This document shows positions 1-57,979 of a DNA stretch of 64,000 nucleotides, one piece after another. Source of the DNA: Eledone cirrhosa. Its lineage: Eukaryota. How positions within the stretch are numbered: the first letter of the stretch is position 1; each line of letters opens with the position of its first letter. Location of the stretch: positions 80,414,001 through 80,478,000 of the forward strand of contig OZ024747.1 of NCBI GenBank assembly GCA_964016885.1, read 5' to 3'. The notes below the pieces were generated by a model that saw only the letters and a list, made by a program, of their open reading frames with translations, was not told where the DNA came from and did not search any database. The position numbers and the translations under genes were made by a program.

Positions 1-10
1 TTCCAGCAAC

Positions 11-361
11 GTGTTCGGTGGAACTAGCCTGCAAGTTCTGGTGAAAATGCAGCCAGAACCACTTGCTAGGATCCCGCACCGCATATTGCTGGATGGGCTT
101 GCCTACTTACATATCACAGTGGAGGGTAGACGATCCGCTTGTTACCTCTGTGGTGGCAGAGGTCACCTGAGGGCTGCCTGTTCCCAAGCAAACAAAAAAA
201 CACCGATTTTGCCCACACCAACAACTACAACACAACCTCCACCACCACTACAAAAACAACTAACTCCACAAGTTAAAACACAACTGAAAACAATCCCACC
301 CATCCCCCACACAGGAAACAAATACAATAACACCCACACCACAAACACGAGCCGAAAATGA
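11..361 (+). pseudogene. ORF1 (gag-like) fragment with CX2CX4HX4C zinc knuckle
   Basis: CYLCGGRGHLRAAC followed by a Pro/Thr-rich low-complexity tail, as in Tx1-type ORF1. Confidence 0.8.
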
Positions 362-965
362 ACCCCTCCCCTTGAATACGGAAGACGACCCCCTTTCGTC
401 GTCAGACGAGAGGGGGGGGGGGGCACTTTCATAAAGTTAAAAGAAAAAAAAGAAAACACACCACAGGAACACAAATACAAACAACCCCTCCCCAAGACAT
501 AACACAGACATCAACACAAAAAAACACACAACAGCAAACAAAAAACATCACGCAAAAAGAAAAATGTGTATAAACTTACATAAATACAATAAACAAAAAA
601 CTGTTAAACGTTATTTATAATAACAACTTAATAAAAACCGAAGGTTCGAATTTCGCACAAGCAACGGGGCTTCCCCATCTAAAAATGATAAAAGCCCCAA
701 TGGACATTTACAAAACGTTAAAAGACACTTTTAAAGAGGACGTGGGGCCCCCCTGCGTCAGACCCATTAACCGTGTCCTCCTAAAAAATCCCCCCCCCCA
801 GACACCCACAGAACTCCAAACACCCCGACCCCACCACACACTGATGCCCCTACACTTCCACAAAGCACCACCCCACCCAACAACCCATCCCCCACCCCCA
901 TGGAAATTGTACGGCCCGGTCCCCGGGACGCAGAGAGGTAAGTGCCTTTTCTCTTTACCACCAAC

Positions 966-3900
966 ATGGCTGTGTTGAGAATAGGTTGTCTAAATGCGCG
1001 TGGCCTGAGCTCACCTTAGAAGCAAACAATGCTTCTAAATGACCTCAGGTCACGATGTATAAATGTGATGGTTATTTGCGAGGCCCGGATCAGCAGCGTG
1101 CGACAGCTGGCCCCCACCTTTGATGACTTTGAGATGCACGCATCTCTCTGTCAGCCCGGAGGTGGGGGTGGGGTTGTCGTTCTCCTGCAAAATCATCTGG
1201 GTCTCGTTACACAGACGGTACACTTGGACTCGGAGGGTCGACTAGTAGTTCTGGACATTGGCAGTGGTGAAAGAGGAGTTTTTAGGCTTGTCGCCGTCTA
1301 CGGCCCTTTTGGGTCAACGCGGCCGGACTTATTCCATCATCTGGAGACTTTTCTAGGGACCTCCCGCTCCTTGCTTTTAGTGGGAGACTGGAATGGTATC
1401 CTAGATGCACGTTGGGACTATGTAGGGGCATGTCCTGATACAGGGGGTTGTAACAGCCTCAAGGGGTTAATCGGCCGATTCGACCTGGCCGATAGATATC
1501 GACTAGATTTTCCGACTCTGCCAACCTGGACTTGGAGAAACCACACGGTCAATCTAGATCGTACCTAGATAGGTTCTTAGTTAGAAATAAGGATAGGGAC
1601 TTTTTAAGTTGTCCAAAAATGCTCATGGTTGGCTATTCAGACCACAAGTTAGTGACCTCCATGGTCAACCTTGATAGAACGCATAGACAGGGACCCGGTT
1701 ACTGGAAGCTCAACTTGTCCTTACCGGCAAGTAAAGCTTACAGGAACCGGATTAGTACATTAGTTAAGGAGCGGTTGACGGGCGCCATCGTCAACAGCAG
1801 GTGGTGGGGCTCTCTCAAAAGAGAGATTAGAGTAGCTTCAATAGGAGTTAGTAAGGAGTTAGCGTCAGATAGAAATAGGAAGGAAAGGGAGTTGGTAGAT
1901 AGTGTAGAAGAGGCAATTAGAAGCGGCGACGTAGCCAGAGTTCTAGCGTCGAGAACGGCCTTGGGCCAGTTCTTCAACGCGAAACACGAAGGCTGCGTTG
2001 TCCGAAGCAAAATACGTGCTCTGGGAAATGAGGGGACCAAAGCTGTTAGCTGGGCCCGCGTGACAGAAGCCAAGAGTGGGACTAGATCCACTATCCGGTC
2101 TTTGCGAGACCAGGATGGACGGGTGATCCTTGAACCTAAGCAGATGTGCGAGGCCTTTCAAAGGCACTTTGCCCGATTGTTCTGAAGGGACGAGGGGCCG
2201 GATGGGGATGTGGACCTCGGTCCATACCTCGACGGTCTGCCGTGTCTTTCGGACGAGGAGGCGAAGTCCTGCGAGAGGCCGATCTCAGCTGCTGAAATAG
2301 GGGACGTGCTGAGCCAATGCGGCAGACGCAAATCTCCGGGCCTCGATGGTCTTCCATACGAACTGTATTTAAGTATGCCGGACTTGTTCTTCGATCTCCT
2401 CGAAGCGGTCTACTGACACTGACAACAGAACGGCAGAATTCCCTGTTCTGTGACCAAGGGCGTAGTCTCTCTAGTGAGGAGGGGCGAGAACAAGGGGGAT
2501 GAAAAAAGTAATTTTAGGCCAATAACATTGCTAAATGCAGAGTTAAAGATTTTGGCCAAGGAGTTAGCAAAGAGGTTGGCGCTTGTCGAGGGCAACCTGG
2601 TGGGAGTGCGCAGATATGCGCCATCCCGTCCAGGTCCATTCACGACAACCTCCATCTCATGCGATACATCATAGAGAGGGTTGGGAACGAACCCGGCTTT
2701 GGTGGGGCCCTGATCAACTTGGATCAATCTAAGGGGTTCGATAAGGTCGACCAACGTTACCTGGATGCAGTGCTAGTGGCGGCAGGTTTCGGACCCGTTT
2801 TCAGGGGCTGGATCACCGGGACAAGTCAGTCGGTTTGCAACTCGGCGAGTGGAGGGGCAAACCGATGGCCTCCAACGGCGTCATCGGACGTTGGACGTAG
2901 GGCCCGGTGAAGTTGCTCGGGGTCTGGTTCGGGCCAGACCTCCAGGTGGAGAAGAACTGGGGTGAGGTATCGAACAGGGTGTTTGCGCTGACGCGGAAGT
3001 GGGCTGAGTACAAACTATCCCTGAAAGGCCGGGCGGATGTGGCGAACGCTTATATAGCGTCCGTCATCTATTACCGCCTGACCGTCGTGCCTTTCCCAAA
3101 GGAAACGCTCACCAAAATGGAGCGCGCACTCTTCCAATTCCTTTGGAAGAAGCGGGCTCCTTTGGTGAGGAGATCCATCTGCTGTCAACACCCTTCGAAA
3201 GGAGAGCTGCGGATGCCGTGGCTGTTGATACGTAAACACGCATTAAGGCTACGGTACCTCCAGGTATTCCTCACCGGTCAACCGGTGTGGGCCCCGTTTG
3301 TGAGGCGAGCCTTCCCGAGACTCATCTCGCTCACCGAGCTGCAGTCCTGGGTCAAGCAAAGACCGAGAAAACTGGGCGCCTGGCACACCGAGTGTGCCCA
3401 GGCGCTCACGGCTCTCTGGCAGGCGGACCCGGCTATCGGTGGAGACTCCACCTCGTCATTCTATAGAGGGCTGGTGGTTAGTAGGTGCGACCGCGCCCTC
3501 GGACAAGCCCTAGGCATGGAGGAAGACGAACTGGCCAGCCTATTCGGGAGGACATTTGGCCCAGGACCTATGGATAACTTCCAGAAGTCCCTGGCCTGGC
3601 AGTGCTACCGAGAGGCGCTGCCCGTTCGAGAAAAGCTCTACAGACACGGGCGCCCGGGTAGGGACCCCTCGAAAAAATCTGTCCTAGATGCGTGCGCGAC
3701 GAGGACACCGTTGCGCACGCATTGGTACACTGCTCGGGCGTTGCCGATCTGTGGGGCTATGTCGAACGACTGCTGTCACGGGTGGGACCAATCCGGTTGA
3801 CCACTGAGTCCATTGTAACGATCAAGCCGCCCCCCCCTTTCAAAAATGAAGGAGAGGCGGTCTTCTTCTGTGTAATAGCCATGGTGAAAGAGGTGGTATG

Positions 3901-4180
3901 GTGGACACGTTTGAAAGGGCTGAGGTCGGACACCTTTCTCTCCGGCCAACAACTGGTCCTTTTCTTTAAATACCATTTTAAGAGAAGGCTCAGAATGGAG
4001 AGAGAGGTCCTCTACCCCAGCAAGTTTTATGAAAGGTGGGTGAAAGTAGCCAGAATGGGCCGTGTGAAAGGGCCTTCTCTCTTTATCAGCCTAGCGGTGG
4101 AAAGGTGCAAGTGCAAAGGAGCACCCTCTCTCTGTTCTCCTAGGGAAAAGTGTTGCACACTTTTTCGGGGGTGTGTGTAA
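966..4180 (+). pseudogene. ORF2 (APE endonuclease, reverse transcriptase, Cys-rich domain) disrupted by stops, frameshifts and an internal deletion
   Basis: ATG 966 MAVLRIGCLNARGL (TAG 1017-1019); GDWN, SYLDRFLV, SDH (APE); KSPGLDGLPYELY, NFRPITLLNAELKILAK, DQSKGFDKVD (RT); KLLGVWF; ICPRCVRDEDTVAHALVHC near 3676-3733. Confidence 0.92.
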
Positions 4181-51340: not shown

Positions 51341-51669
51341 TATAAATAAATATATATATATATATATACATATATATAAATAAATATATATATATATATA
51401 GAATAGAATGAAACGAAATTTCATTTCTCACTCTTAGTACAGCAGTTACTTAAATATAAGTATGCATGTATGTATACGTACATACATATATGTATACAGA
51501 CGTACAGTAGTATATATATACATACATGCACACATACATATATGCACGTATCGGTTTACCGAACATTTATTATAATGCTCGGTTTGTTTGTAAACAAACA
51601 AACAGCCCGAATTACGCCGTACAGTGTTTAGGCAACCACGTCACCTTTTTGTTCAACACTGACACAGGA

Positions 51670-51712
51670 ACGATGTACTAGTTTCAAGCTTATTAGCTAT
51701 CGTCGGCATCGT
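51670..51712 (-). ncRNA. Hammerhead twin with U4C
   Basis: ACGAUG-CCGACGA-UAGCUAAUAAGCUU-GAAAC-UA-GUA/CAUCGU. Confidence 0.7.
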
Positions 51713-52098
51713 ATACCTTCCTGCCAGATGGTTGAACGTCTGAAAGTATATAATTTCCTTATGCATATTAACGGCTGAGCAGCCTAATTTGCATATTGAG
51801 TGAGTTTAGTCGGCCGGGCGCACCGAAAACGATAAATGGAATAGAATTAAACGAAATTTCATTTTTCACTCTTAGTACGGCAGTTACTTAAATGTAAGTA
51901 TGCATGTATGTATACTTACATACATATATGTATACAGCCGTACAGTAGTATGTATATATATACATACATGCACACATATATATATGCACGAATGCTTACA
52001 TTTAAGTAACTCCCGTACTGAGAGTGAGAAATGAAATTTCGTTTCATTCTATTCCATTTATTGTTTTCGGTGCGCCCGGCCGACTAAACTCACTCGAT

Positions 52099-52106
52099 AT
52101 GCAAAT
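52099..52106 (+). promoter_or_regulatory. Octamer motif ATGCAAAT upstream of the hammerhead
   Basis: Exact octamer, retained in the inverted copy (atttgcat near 51787). Confidence 0.3.
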
Positions 52107-52180
52107 TAGGCTGCTCAGCCGTTAATATGCATAAGGAAAGTATATACTTTCAAACGTTTAACCATCTGGCAGGAAAGTAT

Positions 52181-52223
52181 ACGATGCTGACGATAGCTAA
52201 TAAGCTTGAAACTAGTACATCGT
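52181..52223 (+). ncRNA. Minimal type I hammerhead ribozyme, intact core
   Basis: ACGAUG-CUGACGA-U-AGCU-AAUA-AGCU-U-GAAAC-UA-GUA/CAUCGU: 6-bp stem I, palindromic ACUAGU stem III, predicted cleavage after 52217. Confidence 0.85.
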
Positions 52224-52436
52224 TCCTGTGTCAGTGTTGAACAAAAAGGTGACGTGGTTGCCTAAACACTGCACGGAGTAATTCGGACTGTTTGTTTGTT
52301 TACAAACAAACCGAGCATTATAATAAATGTTCGGTAAACCTATACGTGCATATACATATGTGTGCATGTATGTATATATATACATACTACTGTACGTCTG
52401 TATACATATATCTATATACGTATACATACATGCATA

Positions 52437-52481
<45 letters not shown>

Positions 52482-52483
52482 TT

Positions 52484-52951
52484 CAGAATAATCAAAACTA
52501 TGTTCAAAACATTTTATTGCTGACAATCGTTTCTACCAAACTTTCGTTTGGAATCATCTGAGCACTAGCAAAGTTTAGACATATAATTAACTTCCTATCC
52601 GGCAGAACAATCATATAGATACATAGATATTAGTGTTGTCATCAACAGTTTCATATTTTCAGAGTGCAGATGTTGAGGTCAGTGTAAGTGGATGTGACAA
52701 AGATTACAAAATAATAGTATCATAATTAAAGAGGCATTACGGCAAAAAGTTGCTCGGAAAATGAGGACATTAGGAGTACATATGCTGATGACAACATTAA
52801 TATCTATGCTATGTACCTCTATGATTGTTATGTCAGATAGGAAGTTAATTATATGCCTAAACTTTGCTAGTGCTCCGATGATTCCAAACGAAAGTTTGGA
52901 AGAAACGTTTATCAGCAATAAAATGTTTTGAACATAGTTTTGATTATTCTG
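52484..52951. mobile_element. Fold-back element (about 165-bp arms) with a divergent hammerhead pair
   Basis: Arms 52484-52647 and 52783-52951; minus HHR 52518-52564 UGCU-CAGAUGA-UUCCAAAC-GAAA-GUUUGGUA-GAAAC-GAUU-GUC/AGCA; plus HHR 52871-52917 with CCGAUGA. Confidence 0.8.
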
Positions 52952-53089
52952 TAATTCGTATTCCTGCTCTGTAAAACATCTGATGTATTTACATTGAGCT
53001 ATTTTTCTTACTGGTAATAAGGTAGTAATGAATTACTGACCTTTCCTGTTTATAATTATATATAGTATATATATAAGTATAAATAATAT

Positions 53090-55622: not shown

Positions 55623-56173
55623 AATGTGCAATAAGAGCAAAATATAACGACATTGCTCAATTATTTTATCTAATGTTGTAATAACACAAGGAAATGTTGT
55701 TTGTGTATTTTTTTTTATATTTGCTCATAGGCTTTTACAATTTCGCTCAGCCAACAACTATTAAAAAGTGAGTTGCTTAAGATAACAATTTAATCACAAA
55801 TTGTTGCTATCTTTTAATACACTCCAACAAGTCATCAAATTATGTACAATAAAAACAAATCTTATTAATTTGCTCAGGGAATATAAAGAAAATGTATATA
55901 CACTGATAATTGCAATTGTATGTAAATATTTTGTTTTTGTATTGTATATTTTATGTTTTCTATTATGTATAATATATTGATTTAATATTGATTGTTTTTT
56001 GTAGTTGTTTATATTAAAAGTCTGAAAATATTTTTATACATCTTACACTAATATTTATAAGATAATTTATAATAACAATTACATAATCTAATTACATTAC
56101 AACGATAATTTATTATTAATATATATCCTGTTTAACTAGAGTTATTACAAGCGTTGCCTTAAAAAAATATTAA

Positions 56174-57130
56174 ACTAGACATGAAAAATGCGCAAGCTCA
56201 AAAGTGCCACAGAATGTTATAATAAACCTTCAAAAGTGTGGGACTAGAGTTGTTGCTAAAAAATATTGTAATCATTATATATCGTACATTCTGTGGCATC
56301 CTTTATAAAAATAGCTTAAACCAACGAAGCCTTTATTTTTACGCTATTTCACTTAGTTAATTCTTAGAGTGTAACATATAAAAATAAATACATCTATGTT
56401 TAATGTAATAACAGCTATAAATAATTACGTAATATTATTATCATATACTCATAGTAACAAAATAATTGTGTTGAAACTTAATATGATGCTTATATGAACG
56501 ATCAAATCTATAATGATAATTTCTTAAATATACTAATAGTAAACTAATTTAGTTATCTATTGTTACATTTTCATAGAACTATAATATTAACAATCGTATT
56601 GCATTATCAAATTTTTATCACTACAAACTTTCATATTGGAATTACCTTAAGCCACTTATTATTACTTCGCTTTCGTACTTTTACAGCTGTAGATATTGCG
56701 CTGTATCTTATATCTAATATCAATATCTCGTGGTAATTTGCATGAAGTGTAAAATAGGTTTATTAATAACTTTAATATGAAATGTATTATACAGGGCTGC
56801 GGAGTCGGCCAAAAATTGACTGGCTCCAACTCAGGATCCGATACTCCATTATTTCCTAAATTTCAGCTCCGCAGCTCTGTTATTATATTAATTAATTTAT
56901 TTTATAGTTGTAAATCATATTTTTATATGTTACACTCTAAGAATTAACTAAGTGAAATAGCGTAAAAATAAAGGCTTCGTTGGTTTAAGCTATTTTTATA
57001 AAGGATGCCACAGAATGTACGATATATAATGATTACAATATTTTTTAGCAACAACTCTAGTCCCACACTTTTGAAGGTTTATTATAACATTCTGTGGCAC
57101 TTTTGAGCTTGCGCATTTTTCATGTCTAGT
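56174..57130. repeat. Perfect 213-bp inverted repeat with 531-bp spacer and CTAGT-terminated ends
   Basis: 56174-56386 equals the reverse complement of 56918-57130; no mismatch found by eye. Confidence 0.95.
56792..56879. mobile_element. 88-bp hAT-like MITE
   Basis: TIR CAGGGCTGCGGAG / CTCCGCAGCTCTG; 8-bp TSD gtattata / ttattata. Confidence 0.72.
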
Positions 57131-57149
57131 ATATATATATATATATATA

Positions 57150-57979
57150 TATAAATGAGACGTATAGAGATTGTTTTAGCAAGAAGCTAACGGCATTCTA
57201 TAACATATATGCGACTATAACGTCAAGATGGGAAAAGTAGTTAACGAAAGATTTAGGAAAAATAACTCAAACTCATCTCAAAAAGAGAATCAGGATACAA
57301 ATTCATCCACAGAATTTAGTAAAATCCATGGAAAAATCAATAGACCTTTAACTCATGATAAAACAAAGTTTGAAACACTTATCCTTCAATTTGGAATAAC
57401 ATCAAATGCTCTGTATAGTCTTAAAAGACTATTTCATGAAAACTTTCAGTGGAGATGGTCACGGTTGGATATCATTCATCAGCAGAGCTCAACAGAAAAC
57501 CAGGACTCTCACAGTAATATAGTCCGAAAAAGGGAATTCTAAAACTCGCTAGTTCGCCTTCATGTGTATTTATGAAAAAGCACATGAGGAAAAAACGGGG
57601 CTAGTGGCGTCAGGATGGAAGTGAATATTTATTTACAAGAAATAGCAGTCAAATACATTCTGAAAAAAAAACTCTACAAGGAGTTCAGCAAAATAGCAAT
57701 AATTATCACAGTTTTTATGAAAAAAACCGGGATTAGTCACAGATAGTTTAAGCACTCTAGGAAAAGAATCCGAGTATAAATATAAATGAGACGTATAGAG
57801 ATTGTTTTAGCAAGAAGCTAACGACATTCTATAACATATATGCGACTATAACGTCAAGATGGGAAAAGTAGTTAACGAAAGATTTAGGAAAAATAACTCA
57901 AACTCATCTCAAAAAGAGAATCAGGATACAAATTCATCCACAGAATTTAGTAAAATCCATGGAAAAATCAATAGACCTT
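57150..57979 (-). mobile_element. Retrozyme-like element: 631-bp period, about 200-bp terminal direct repeats, internal hammerhead
   Basis: 57150-57348 repeated at 57781-57979; (TA)n on both sides; HHR at 57408-57488. Confidence 0.78.
57408..57488 (-). ncRNA. Type I hammerhead ribozyme with full stem III, intact core
   Basis: GCUCUG-CUGAUGA-AUGA-(32 nt)-UCAU-GAAA-UAGUC-UUUUAA-GACUA-UA/CAGAGC. Confidence 0.8.

Follow-up and report, generated by a model that had tools for sequence, protein, structure and literature searches.

A 438-bp hammerhead repeat in Eledone cirrhosa, probably a non-autonomous retrozyme moved by a Penelope-like element

How does a small repeat come to lie beside itself, once as a partial tandem and once as an inverted, circularly permuted copy, and what kind of machinery would have placed it there? 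We analyzed such a locus (locus 1) in a stretch of 64,000 nucleotides of Eledone cirrhosa DNA, here called the window, which is AT-rich and dense in microsatellites. We consider it quite probable that the 438-bp element found there is a non-autonomous non-LTR retrozyme, likely mobilised in trans by a Penelope-like element (PLE) through its RT/GIY-YIG protein. The anatomy of the element, its shared outer ends, the abundance of its family and its conserved core are the established part of this account, while the retrozyme assignment is drawn from DNA, with expression, cleavage and the PLE partner being predicted.

Locus 1 is made up of the features below, in which monomer coordinates m1-m438 correspond to window positions 51401-51838 on the + strand.

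51255..51400, no strand: (TA)n target, left flank, common to the neighbouring 615-bp tandem
51401..51838, - strand (hammerhead sense): unit A, a complete 438-bp monomer with 38% GC, whose 3' end adjoins (TA)n
51401..51453, - strand: tail, a ~53-bp 3' extension (m1-m53) at the outer end of arm A only; the outer end of the inverted arm is without it
51670..51712, - strand: unit A hammerhead, predicted inactive, with core CCGA instead of CUGA, a private mutation
51839..51990, - strand: A', a partial second unit (m1-151), head-to-tail with A, 92% identical to A by blastn, ending at the inversion junction
51991..51994, no strand: head-to-head inversion junction, flanked by pairable m63-75 and m135-147
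51995..52443, + strand: inverted arm B, running m60 to m1 to m438 to m54, 95% identical to the unit by blastn, one unit plus 4-7 nt
52181..52223, + strand: predicted intact type I hammerhead motif, a type I descriptor match in arm B
52444..52478, no strand: (TA)n target, right flank

The earlier note on this DNA had described a 438-bp unit that continues for about 150 bp more and is followed by one inverted, permuted monomer, and both statements held in our alignments (A' and arm B above). The unit is 438-442 bp long with a GC fraction of 0.37-0.38, and no LTR pair was visible in the blastn comparison of the 438-bp repeat. The arms measure 590 nt (A plus A') and ~449 nt (B), each longer than one unit, so that the locus consists of 1.35 units plus an inverted arm, with one hammerhead per strand. 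Pairwise divergence of A, A' and B was roughly equal, at 4-6%. The 3' end of arm B enters (TA)n through a 5-nt TA microhomology. At the inversion junction, m63-75 and m135-147 can form 11 Watson-Crick and 2 G-T pairs, with a forced fold of -10.4 kcal/mol versus -15.8 kcal/mol for the free fold. Locus 1 is an aged insertion and probably inert.

The motif at 52181-52223 is built of a 6-bp helix I, a CUGA-C-GA core, an unpaired U, a 4-bp helix II, GAAA and a 1-bp helix III, with cleavage predicted at 52217/52218. Helix III sits in a self-complementary 6-mer (duplex -4.8 kcal/mol), and a distal helix is formed by 52170-52174 with 52224-52228. That arm B carries an intact hammerhead, as previously claimed, was borne out by the descriptor, which matched none of 5,000 mononucleotide shuffles of arm B and gave 0 matches in 30 block-shuffled 64-kb windows. 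A second, weaker descriptor match, at 19075-19113, fell under the stem thresholds applied to the shuffles. Rfam returned no matches at gathering score across the 64 kb; at E<=10 it returned 99 matches within 51300-52600, none of them to a hammerhead family. We rejected these 99 weak matches, most of which placed miRNA or snoRNA hairpin models on the palindrome or the TA/TG-rich part.

Folded in isolation, the motif was not better than shuffles, of which 12 to 53 out of 200 were as good across four folds, and its free fold was without helix III. The circularised unit folded at -124.0 kcal/mol versus -91.8 +/- 5.5 kcal/mol for shuffles (0/60 as good; z -5.9), the antisense circle was nearly as stable as the sense circle (z -5.05), and the non-repetitive part of the unit alone gave a fold z of -3.72, with 0/100 shuffles as good. 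A type I build of 6-bp, 4-bp and 1-bp helices is the canonical metazoan form, for which efficient cleavage is reported to need a second copy (PMC4209133, PMC7229834). The arm B hammerhead would be predicted to cleave efficiently only as a dimer in tandem transcripts. Since locus 1 has one hammerhead per strand, it would allow no monomer release by double cleavage, and no 438-nt circle would come from locus 1.

A third locus in the window had been assigned to the same repeat, and blastn comparison confirmed that 45632-45971 (locus 3) belongs to the 438-bp family. It has the following parts.

45632..45773, - strand (hammerhead sense): tail-less arm, m54-193
45774..45795, no strand: AT-rich filler of 22 bp at the inversion junction
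45796..45971, + strand: tail-bearing arm, running m176 to m1 to m432

Variants at m145, m152, m154 and m157 are common to both arms of locus 3 and missing from locus 1, which indicates that locus 3 is an independent insertion of another subfamily. The reading across the monomer junction that had been ascribed to this locus was not confirmed and amounts to 7 AT-rich bases. The two loci had also been said to have different breakpoints. This proved true of the inner junctions (m151/m60 at locus 1 versus m193/m176 at locus 3) but not of the outer ends, which coincide in the alignment: one arm ends at m54 at both loci, and the other ends at m1 (locus 1) or m432 (locus 3). On the hammerhead strand, the 5' sides meet centrally at both loci and 4/4 outer 3' ends run into (TA)n, and at both loci one arm alone carries an extension of 53-60 nt.

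We simulated the chance that both loci share both ends and obtained 0.00126 with uniform ends and 0.00745 when ends were restricted to the 23 TA-run starts in the monomer. With both outer ends shared at a chance of 0.001-0.007, the earlier argument from differing permutations is not supported. The longest TA runs of the monomer, at m111 (10 nt) and at m86, m138 and m347 (6 nt each), are unused as ends, indicating that TA microhomology alone does not choose the end sites. The m54 end lies in the loop of a small hairpin in 2/2 predicted folds, and the other end lies in a loop in 1/2. In these two full insertions (n=2), both from the 64-kb window, the shared outer ends point to fixed PLE-type start sites, not to random entry on a circle.

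In published PLE insertions a partial tandem lies next to an inverted, 5'-truncated copy, usually in head-to-head orientation, and one arm bears a tail of 30-40 bp (PMC3846280, PMC8557442). Locus 1 shows the partial tandem and the inverted 5'-truncated copy, head to head, and locus 3 the inversion; a one-arm tail arising from two fixed 3' sites is present in 2/2 loci, and the target is (TA)n at 4/4 outer ends. Head-to-head arms, a one-arm 53-60-nt extension and a (TA)n target together match the inverted pseudo-LTR (pLTR) plus tail of PLEs, a form that two fixed start sites of reverse transcription produce (PMC3846280, PMC11167929). Work with purified Poseidon protein provides a biochemical counterpart: on AT-rich DNA the protein nicks both strands and extends them, beginning at two positions within the RNA, the spacing of which equals the tail (PMC11167929).

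Under the retrozyme and PLE interpretation, a tandem source locus elsewhere would be transcribed into a longer-than-unit RNA, with an uncleaved multimer likelier than a circle. The PLE protein would nick both strands of the AT-rich (TA)n target, and the two target ends would prime cDNA at fixed RNA sites, m~432-1 and m~54, with the spacing between them giving the tail. The two cDNAs would stop at variable points and then join head to head, at locus 1 by annealing of the self-complementary TA/TG-rich segment and at locus 3 through filler. The hammerhead may yield monomers or circles at other loci. At locus 3 the short arm reaches m193 and the long arm only m176. Each arm holds sequence missing from the other, a pattern that simple fold-back in either direction would not give and that speaks for two separate cDNAs, unless the centre was deleted later. 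The junction pairing at locus 1 suits annealing of two cDNA ends or fold-back alike.

What was the template? Both arms of locus 1 pass the cleavage site and exceed one unit, so it was either a multimer left uncleaved or a circle. For locus 1 and locus 3 a circle is possible, not required, and a linear uncleaved read-through RNA explains the window data as well as a circle does. That the template was a self-cleaved, re-ligated 438-nt circle, with arm B as one full turn and A plus A' as 1.35 turns, seems to us possible rather than probable; this is the model of the earlier note, amended to include fixed start sites. The strongest point in its favour is that arm B is one unit plus only 4-7 nt, which by hand estimate has a ~3-4% chance on a linear multimer with a random junction, but its junction is also explained by the m63-75/m135-147 pairing beside the m54 site. 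The equal divergence of A, A' and B is what copies that entered as identical sequences would show, family contigs close the unit into a ring, the circularised unit folds stably, and the retrozymes of coral, mussel and axolotl accumulate as circles (PMC7229834). Against this, hammerhead cleavage was unnecessary for Poseidon, whose main substrate was unprocessed RNA (PMC11167929). A further difference, G at m56 in A' and in the 5' start of B versus A in unit A, would suit a mixed linear dimer or fold-back, but a single site is concerned and unit A has several private changes. We downgraded it as evidence against a circle because the base in the 3' end of arm B falls inside the TA microhomology.

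A bolder proposal, that the retrozyme is expressed as a circle on which a PLE dimer primes one cDNA per nicked strand at two fixed sites, with arm B made in one turn, appears rather unlikely. If true, it would supply invertebrate genomic evidence that retrozyme circles template PLE-driven retrotransposition, and it would mean that twin priming creates the inverted pLTR and the tail.

We then turned to sequencing runs for the wider family. Twenty runs in 16 studies contain part of arm B; none is recorded as RNA, which makes them uninformative on expression. Four runs (X1, X5, X6 and X21) were aligned to 51552-51990, of which 51889-51990, including the m54 end and m56, was skipped as repeat. Family matches amounted to 8,919 of 17,142,217 contigs in X1 and 43,904 of 12,467,656 reads in X21, and in further organisms to 54 of 8,254,286 in X5 (organism B) and 5 of 23,643,904 in X6 (organism C). 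X1 may derive from the source of the window itself. Summed contig depth was not taken as copy number, nor were depth dips taken as ends. With two loci of different subfamilies in the window and family matches in two further organisms, the repeat is multicopy and dispersed, and is not the purely local duplication that the earlier note had weighed.

The CCGA core of unit A is the exception in this family. At 51705, A restores CUGA, and it was read in 1,315,492 of 1,316,079 depth units in X1 and in 9,306/9,547 and 7,163/7,194 reads in X21, while in X5 and X6 all depth restores CUGA. Among the 40 of 79 variant rows listed, the only other core change was at free position 7 (51702), and a single variant fell in loop II. 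In helix I the most frequent variant, 51709 T>A (693,804 of 1,232,904 depth units in X1), would give a U-U mismatch unless a partner change is among the remaining 39 of the 79 variant rows. Conservation of the core across the family implies selection on an RNA. The hammerhead repeat is thus an abundant, dispersed family with a conserved CUGA core.

Contigs span the m438-m1 junction in X1 (51741-51873) and in X5 (51700-51862), which shows that this junction is ordinary in the family and that the unit closes as a ring. These contigs, the dispersal of the family and the fact that both locus 1 arms run for more than one unit through the hammerhead site support the original proposal that a retrozyme-like element was reverse-transcribed from an RNA longer than one unit. 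Neither window locus has an array with two complete same-strand hammerheads, and no piece long enough to hold two hammerheads was among the listed contigs.

Nine strand-changing joints were found among the 15 of 17 joints listed. We dropped two of them (51609/51851 and 51645/51855), which lie at AATT sites; the remaining seven opposite-strand joints fall at seven different places, off AATT/CATG reference sites, and may include chimeras. The strongest loose ends of X21, at 51612, 51854 and 51855, were rejected as termini, being at AATT sites in a reduced-representation library and probably chimeras, and molecule ends at 51786, 51789 and 51858, also at AATT sites, were treated as restriction-library effects. 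One joint side, at 51676, is <=1 nt from the predicted cleavage site. We did not use it as evidence, because the chance expectation is ~15% (18 breakpoints, hand estimate) and no loose end among the 20 of 504 listed accompanied it.

Could the unit be the pseudo-LTR of an autonomous PLE, with the two loci being its 5'-truncated inverted stumps and not a separate family? Truncation affects most PLE insertions, and pairs of opposite-strand hammerheads separated by 100-700 bp have been ascribed to truncated PLEs (PMC4209133). In PLEs the first ORF codons lie in the tail (PMC3846280), and here a frame of 18 codons begins at the tail ATG (52031) and lengthens to 69 on read-through of its stop (52031-52237, crossing the hammerhead); half of the X1 depth has a sense codon in place of this stop (51807 T>A, 87,971/174,917). 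In A/A', in B and in contigs from two organisms, however, the end of the tail leads on into a further 438-bp unit, which indicates a small closed ring that leaves no space for an ORF. The 69-residue frame, with X at the stop, had no match at E<=1 among longer proteins, weak evidence in that only 2 candidates were scored, and the hammerhead has the canonical build described above, not the minimal PLE form (PMC4209133). We regard the pseudo-LTR explanation as distinctly improbable.

As the earlier note had held, locus 1 has no credible ORF: of the 16 overlapping ATG ORFs with at least 20 aa, the longest has 71 aa and is low-complexity, and Pfam found no family in the five locus 1 frames that were part of a scan of 150 window frames. 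The scan covered 150 of the 151 complex frames of at least 55 aa in the 64-kb window and gave no RT or GIY-YIG family. Exact-pattern scans gave 0 matches each in metagenome, viral and prokaryotic genome contigs. In Octopus vulgaris, PLE families have been annotated (PMC13282606).

An origin at the DNA level, whether as a foldback or MITE-like transposon, a recombination-scattered satellite unit or an assembly fold-back artefact, would suit the fixed outer ends at both loci and the palindromic structure. A target-site duplication would be unreadable within (TA)n, and because palindromes readily lose their centres, a longer form could give locus 3. Yet the ends, although fixed, are asymmetric, differing by the 53-60-nt tail at both loci, and so are not the terminal inverted repeats of a DNA transposon with TIRs and TSD, a possibility that had been raised for this repeat. 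A sequencing fold-back would not show the 4-5% difference between the locus 1 arms, locus 3 belongs to another subfamily, with variants common to both of its arms, and the hammerhead core is conserved family-wide. We give an origin of this kind very little chance.

The retrozyme reading agrees with what is known of such elements. Repeat units in this size range that carry type I hammerheads are classed as non-LTR retrozymes (PMC7229834; review PMC7761336). Like metazoan non-LTR retrozymes, the repeat has a non-coding unit in the 150-450 bp range with GC <50% and one type I hammerhead per unit, and it shares with them head-to-tail copies, high copy number and a stable predicted fold (PMC7229834). 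Its 1-bp helix III with a palindromic loop resembles the axolotl and newt motif that cleaves as a dimer (PMC7229834). Unlike in retrozymes, the copies seen in the window are 1.35 units plus an inverted arm and not arrays of at least 2 hammerhead-bearing units; an 'active' retrozyme has been defined as a tandem array with at least 2 consecutive hammerhead units (Li et al. 2026, bioRxiv 10.64898/2026.07.22.740005). In the same preprint, 8/9 tested retrozyme dimers were uncleaved in vitro, and vertebrate retrozymes are derived from PLE pLTRs, with homology evidence from Xenopus (bioRxiv 10.64898/2026.07.22.740005). PLE-type tail and inversion scars are not described for retrozymes in the accessible text of two of these sources (PMC7229834; bioRxiv 10.64898/2026.07.22.740005), and we found no report of the two on a retrozyme in literature covered mainly through open access.

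To the insertions of EN+ PLEs the loci are alike in the partial tandem, the adjacent inverted 5'-truncated head-to-head copy and the extension on one arm, as well as in the hammerhead upstream of the 3' ends and an AT-rich or microsatellite target that hides the duplication (PMC3846280, PMC8557442, PMC11167929). They are unlike EN+ PLEs in that there is no ORF, the whole repeating unit is 438 bp and the tail is 53-60 nt versus 30-40 bp. A (TA)n bias is described for Naiad, which is without canonical hammerheads, and a microsatellite bias for Neptune (PMC3846280, PMC8557442, PMC11167929). A further likeness is to Chlamys MRC1 of Chlamydomonas, where non-coding PLE dependants have pLTRs and multicopy head-to-tail insertions (PMC8557442). 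Chlamys differs in being green-algal and, in most cases, without canonical hammerheads (PMC8557442); its non-autonomous elements match a known autonomous family at the 3' end, whereas we found no such match here (PMC8557442).

Among cephalopods, 235 hammerhead matches are reported from the giant squid (PMC8490949, PMC6962438). A literature search that covered mainly open-access text, and partly titles and abstract starts, found nothing on the 438-bp family. The kind of element is already known, namely PLE-linked animal retrozymes, and the 438-bp family is a further member. As known here from DNA and from 1.35-unit copies, the element appears to behave like a PLE-mobilised retrozyme.

Arguments about which machinery moves animal retrozymes have relied on co-occurrence and, for Xenopus, on homology with pLTRs. 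The retrozyme-type unit described here carries PLE-specific insertion scars, with a one-sided tail, a head-to-head inversion and a TA target, and adds independent, if small, support from an invertebrate. The thousands of copies of this tiny ORF-free unit would be suited to separating twin priming from fold-back, and a circle from a linear multimer, by their breakpoints.

The window holds several other repeats, among them elements in microsatellites whose anatomy resembles that of locus 1. Directly left of locus 1, a ~615-bp unit occurs in 2.2 copies (49885-51254) that are 96% alike and bounded by (TA)n runs, and this tandem has no CTGANGA..GAAA core pair. Directly right of the (TA)n flank of locus 1, inverted ~170-bp arms at 90% occupy 52479-52956. 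At 57154-57979 there are 1.3 copies of a ~631-bp unit, 99.5% alike and between (TA)n runs, with a CTGATGA..GAAA pair without clear helices at 57482 on the - strand. Young inverted pairs lie at 56171-57133 (216 bp, 99.5%) and 22079-22638 (215 bp, 97.7%), and a CTGATGA..GAAA pair at 22666 on the - strand is just outside one arm of the latter.

An unrelated asymmetric palindrome of like anatomy to the 438-bp loci, head to head and with a ~65-nt extension on one arm, lies at 46557-46775 between (TA)n and (CT)n. A hammerhead-like motif is present in its left arm on the - strand, with the core at 46686 and a palindromic helix III, and the right-arm copy of this motif is damaged; folded alone, the motif gave no hammerhead fold, and 165/200 shuffles were as good. 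A small asymmetric palindrome between (TA)n runs at 46356-46487 has an extension that recurs at 39810-39889 (95%). On the + strand, 35980-36015 is a degenerate minimal hammerhead-like motif near a repeat common to 47405-47630. Positions 1-4180 hold a broken L1/Tx1-like LINE with weak Exo_endo_phos, zf-RVT and zf-CCHC matches, all under curated Pfam cut-offs. A ~180-bp interspersed family, represented by 42130-42314 and found in about ten other places at 75-90% identity, may resemble an octopus SINE.
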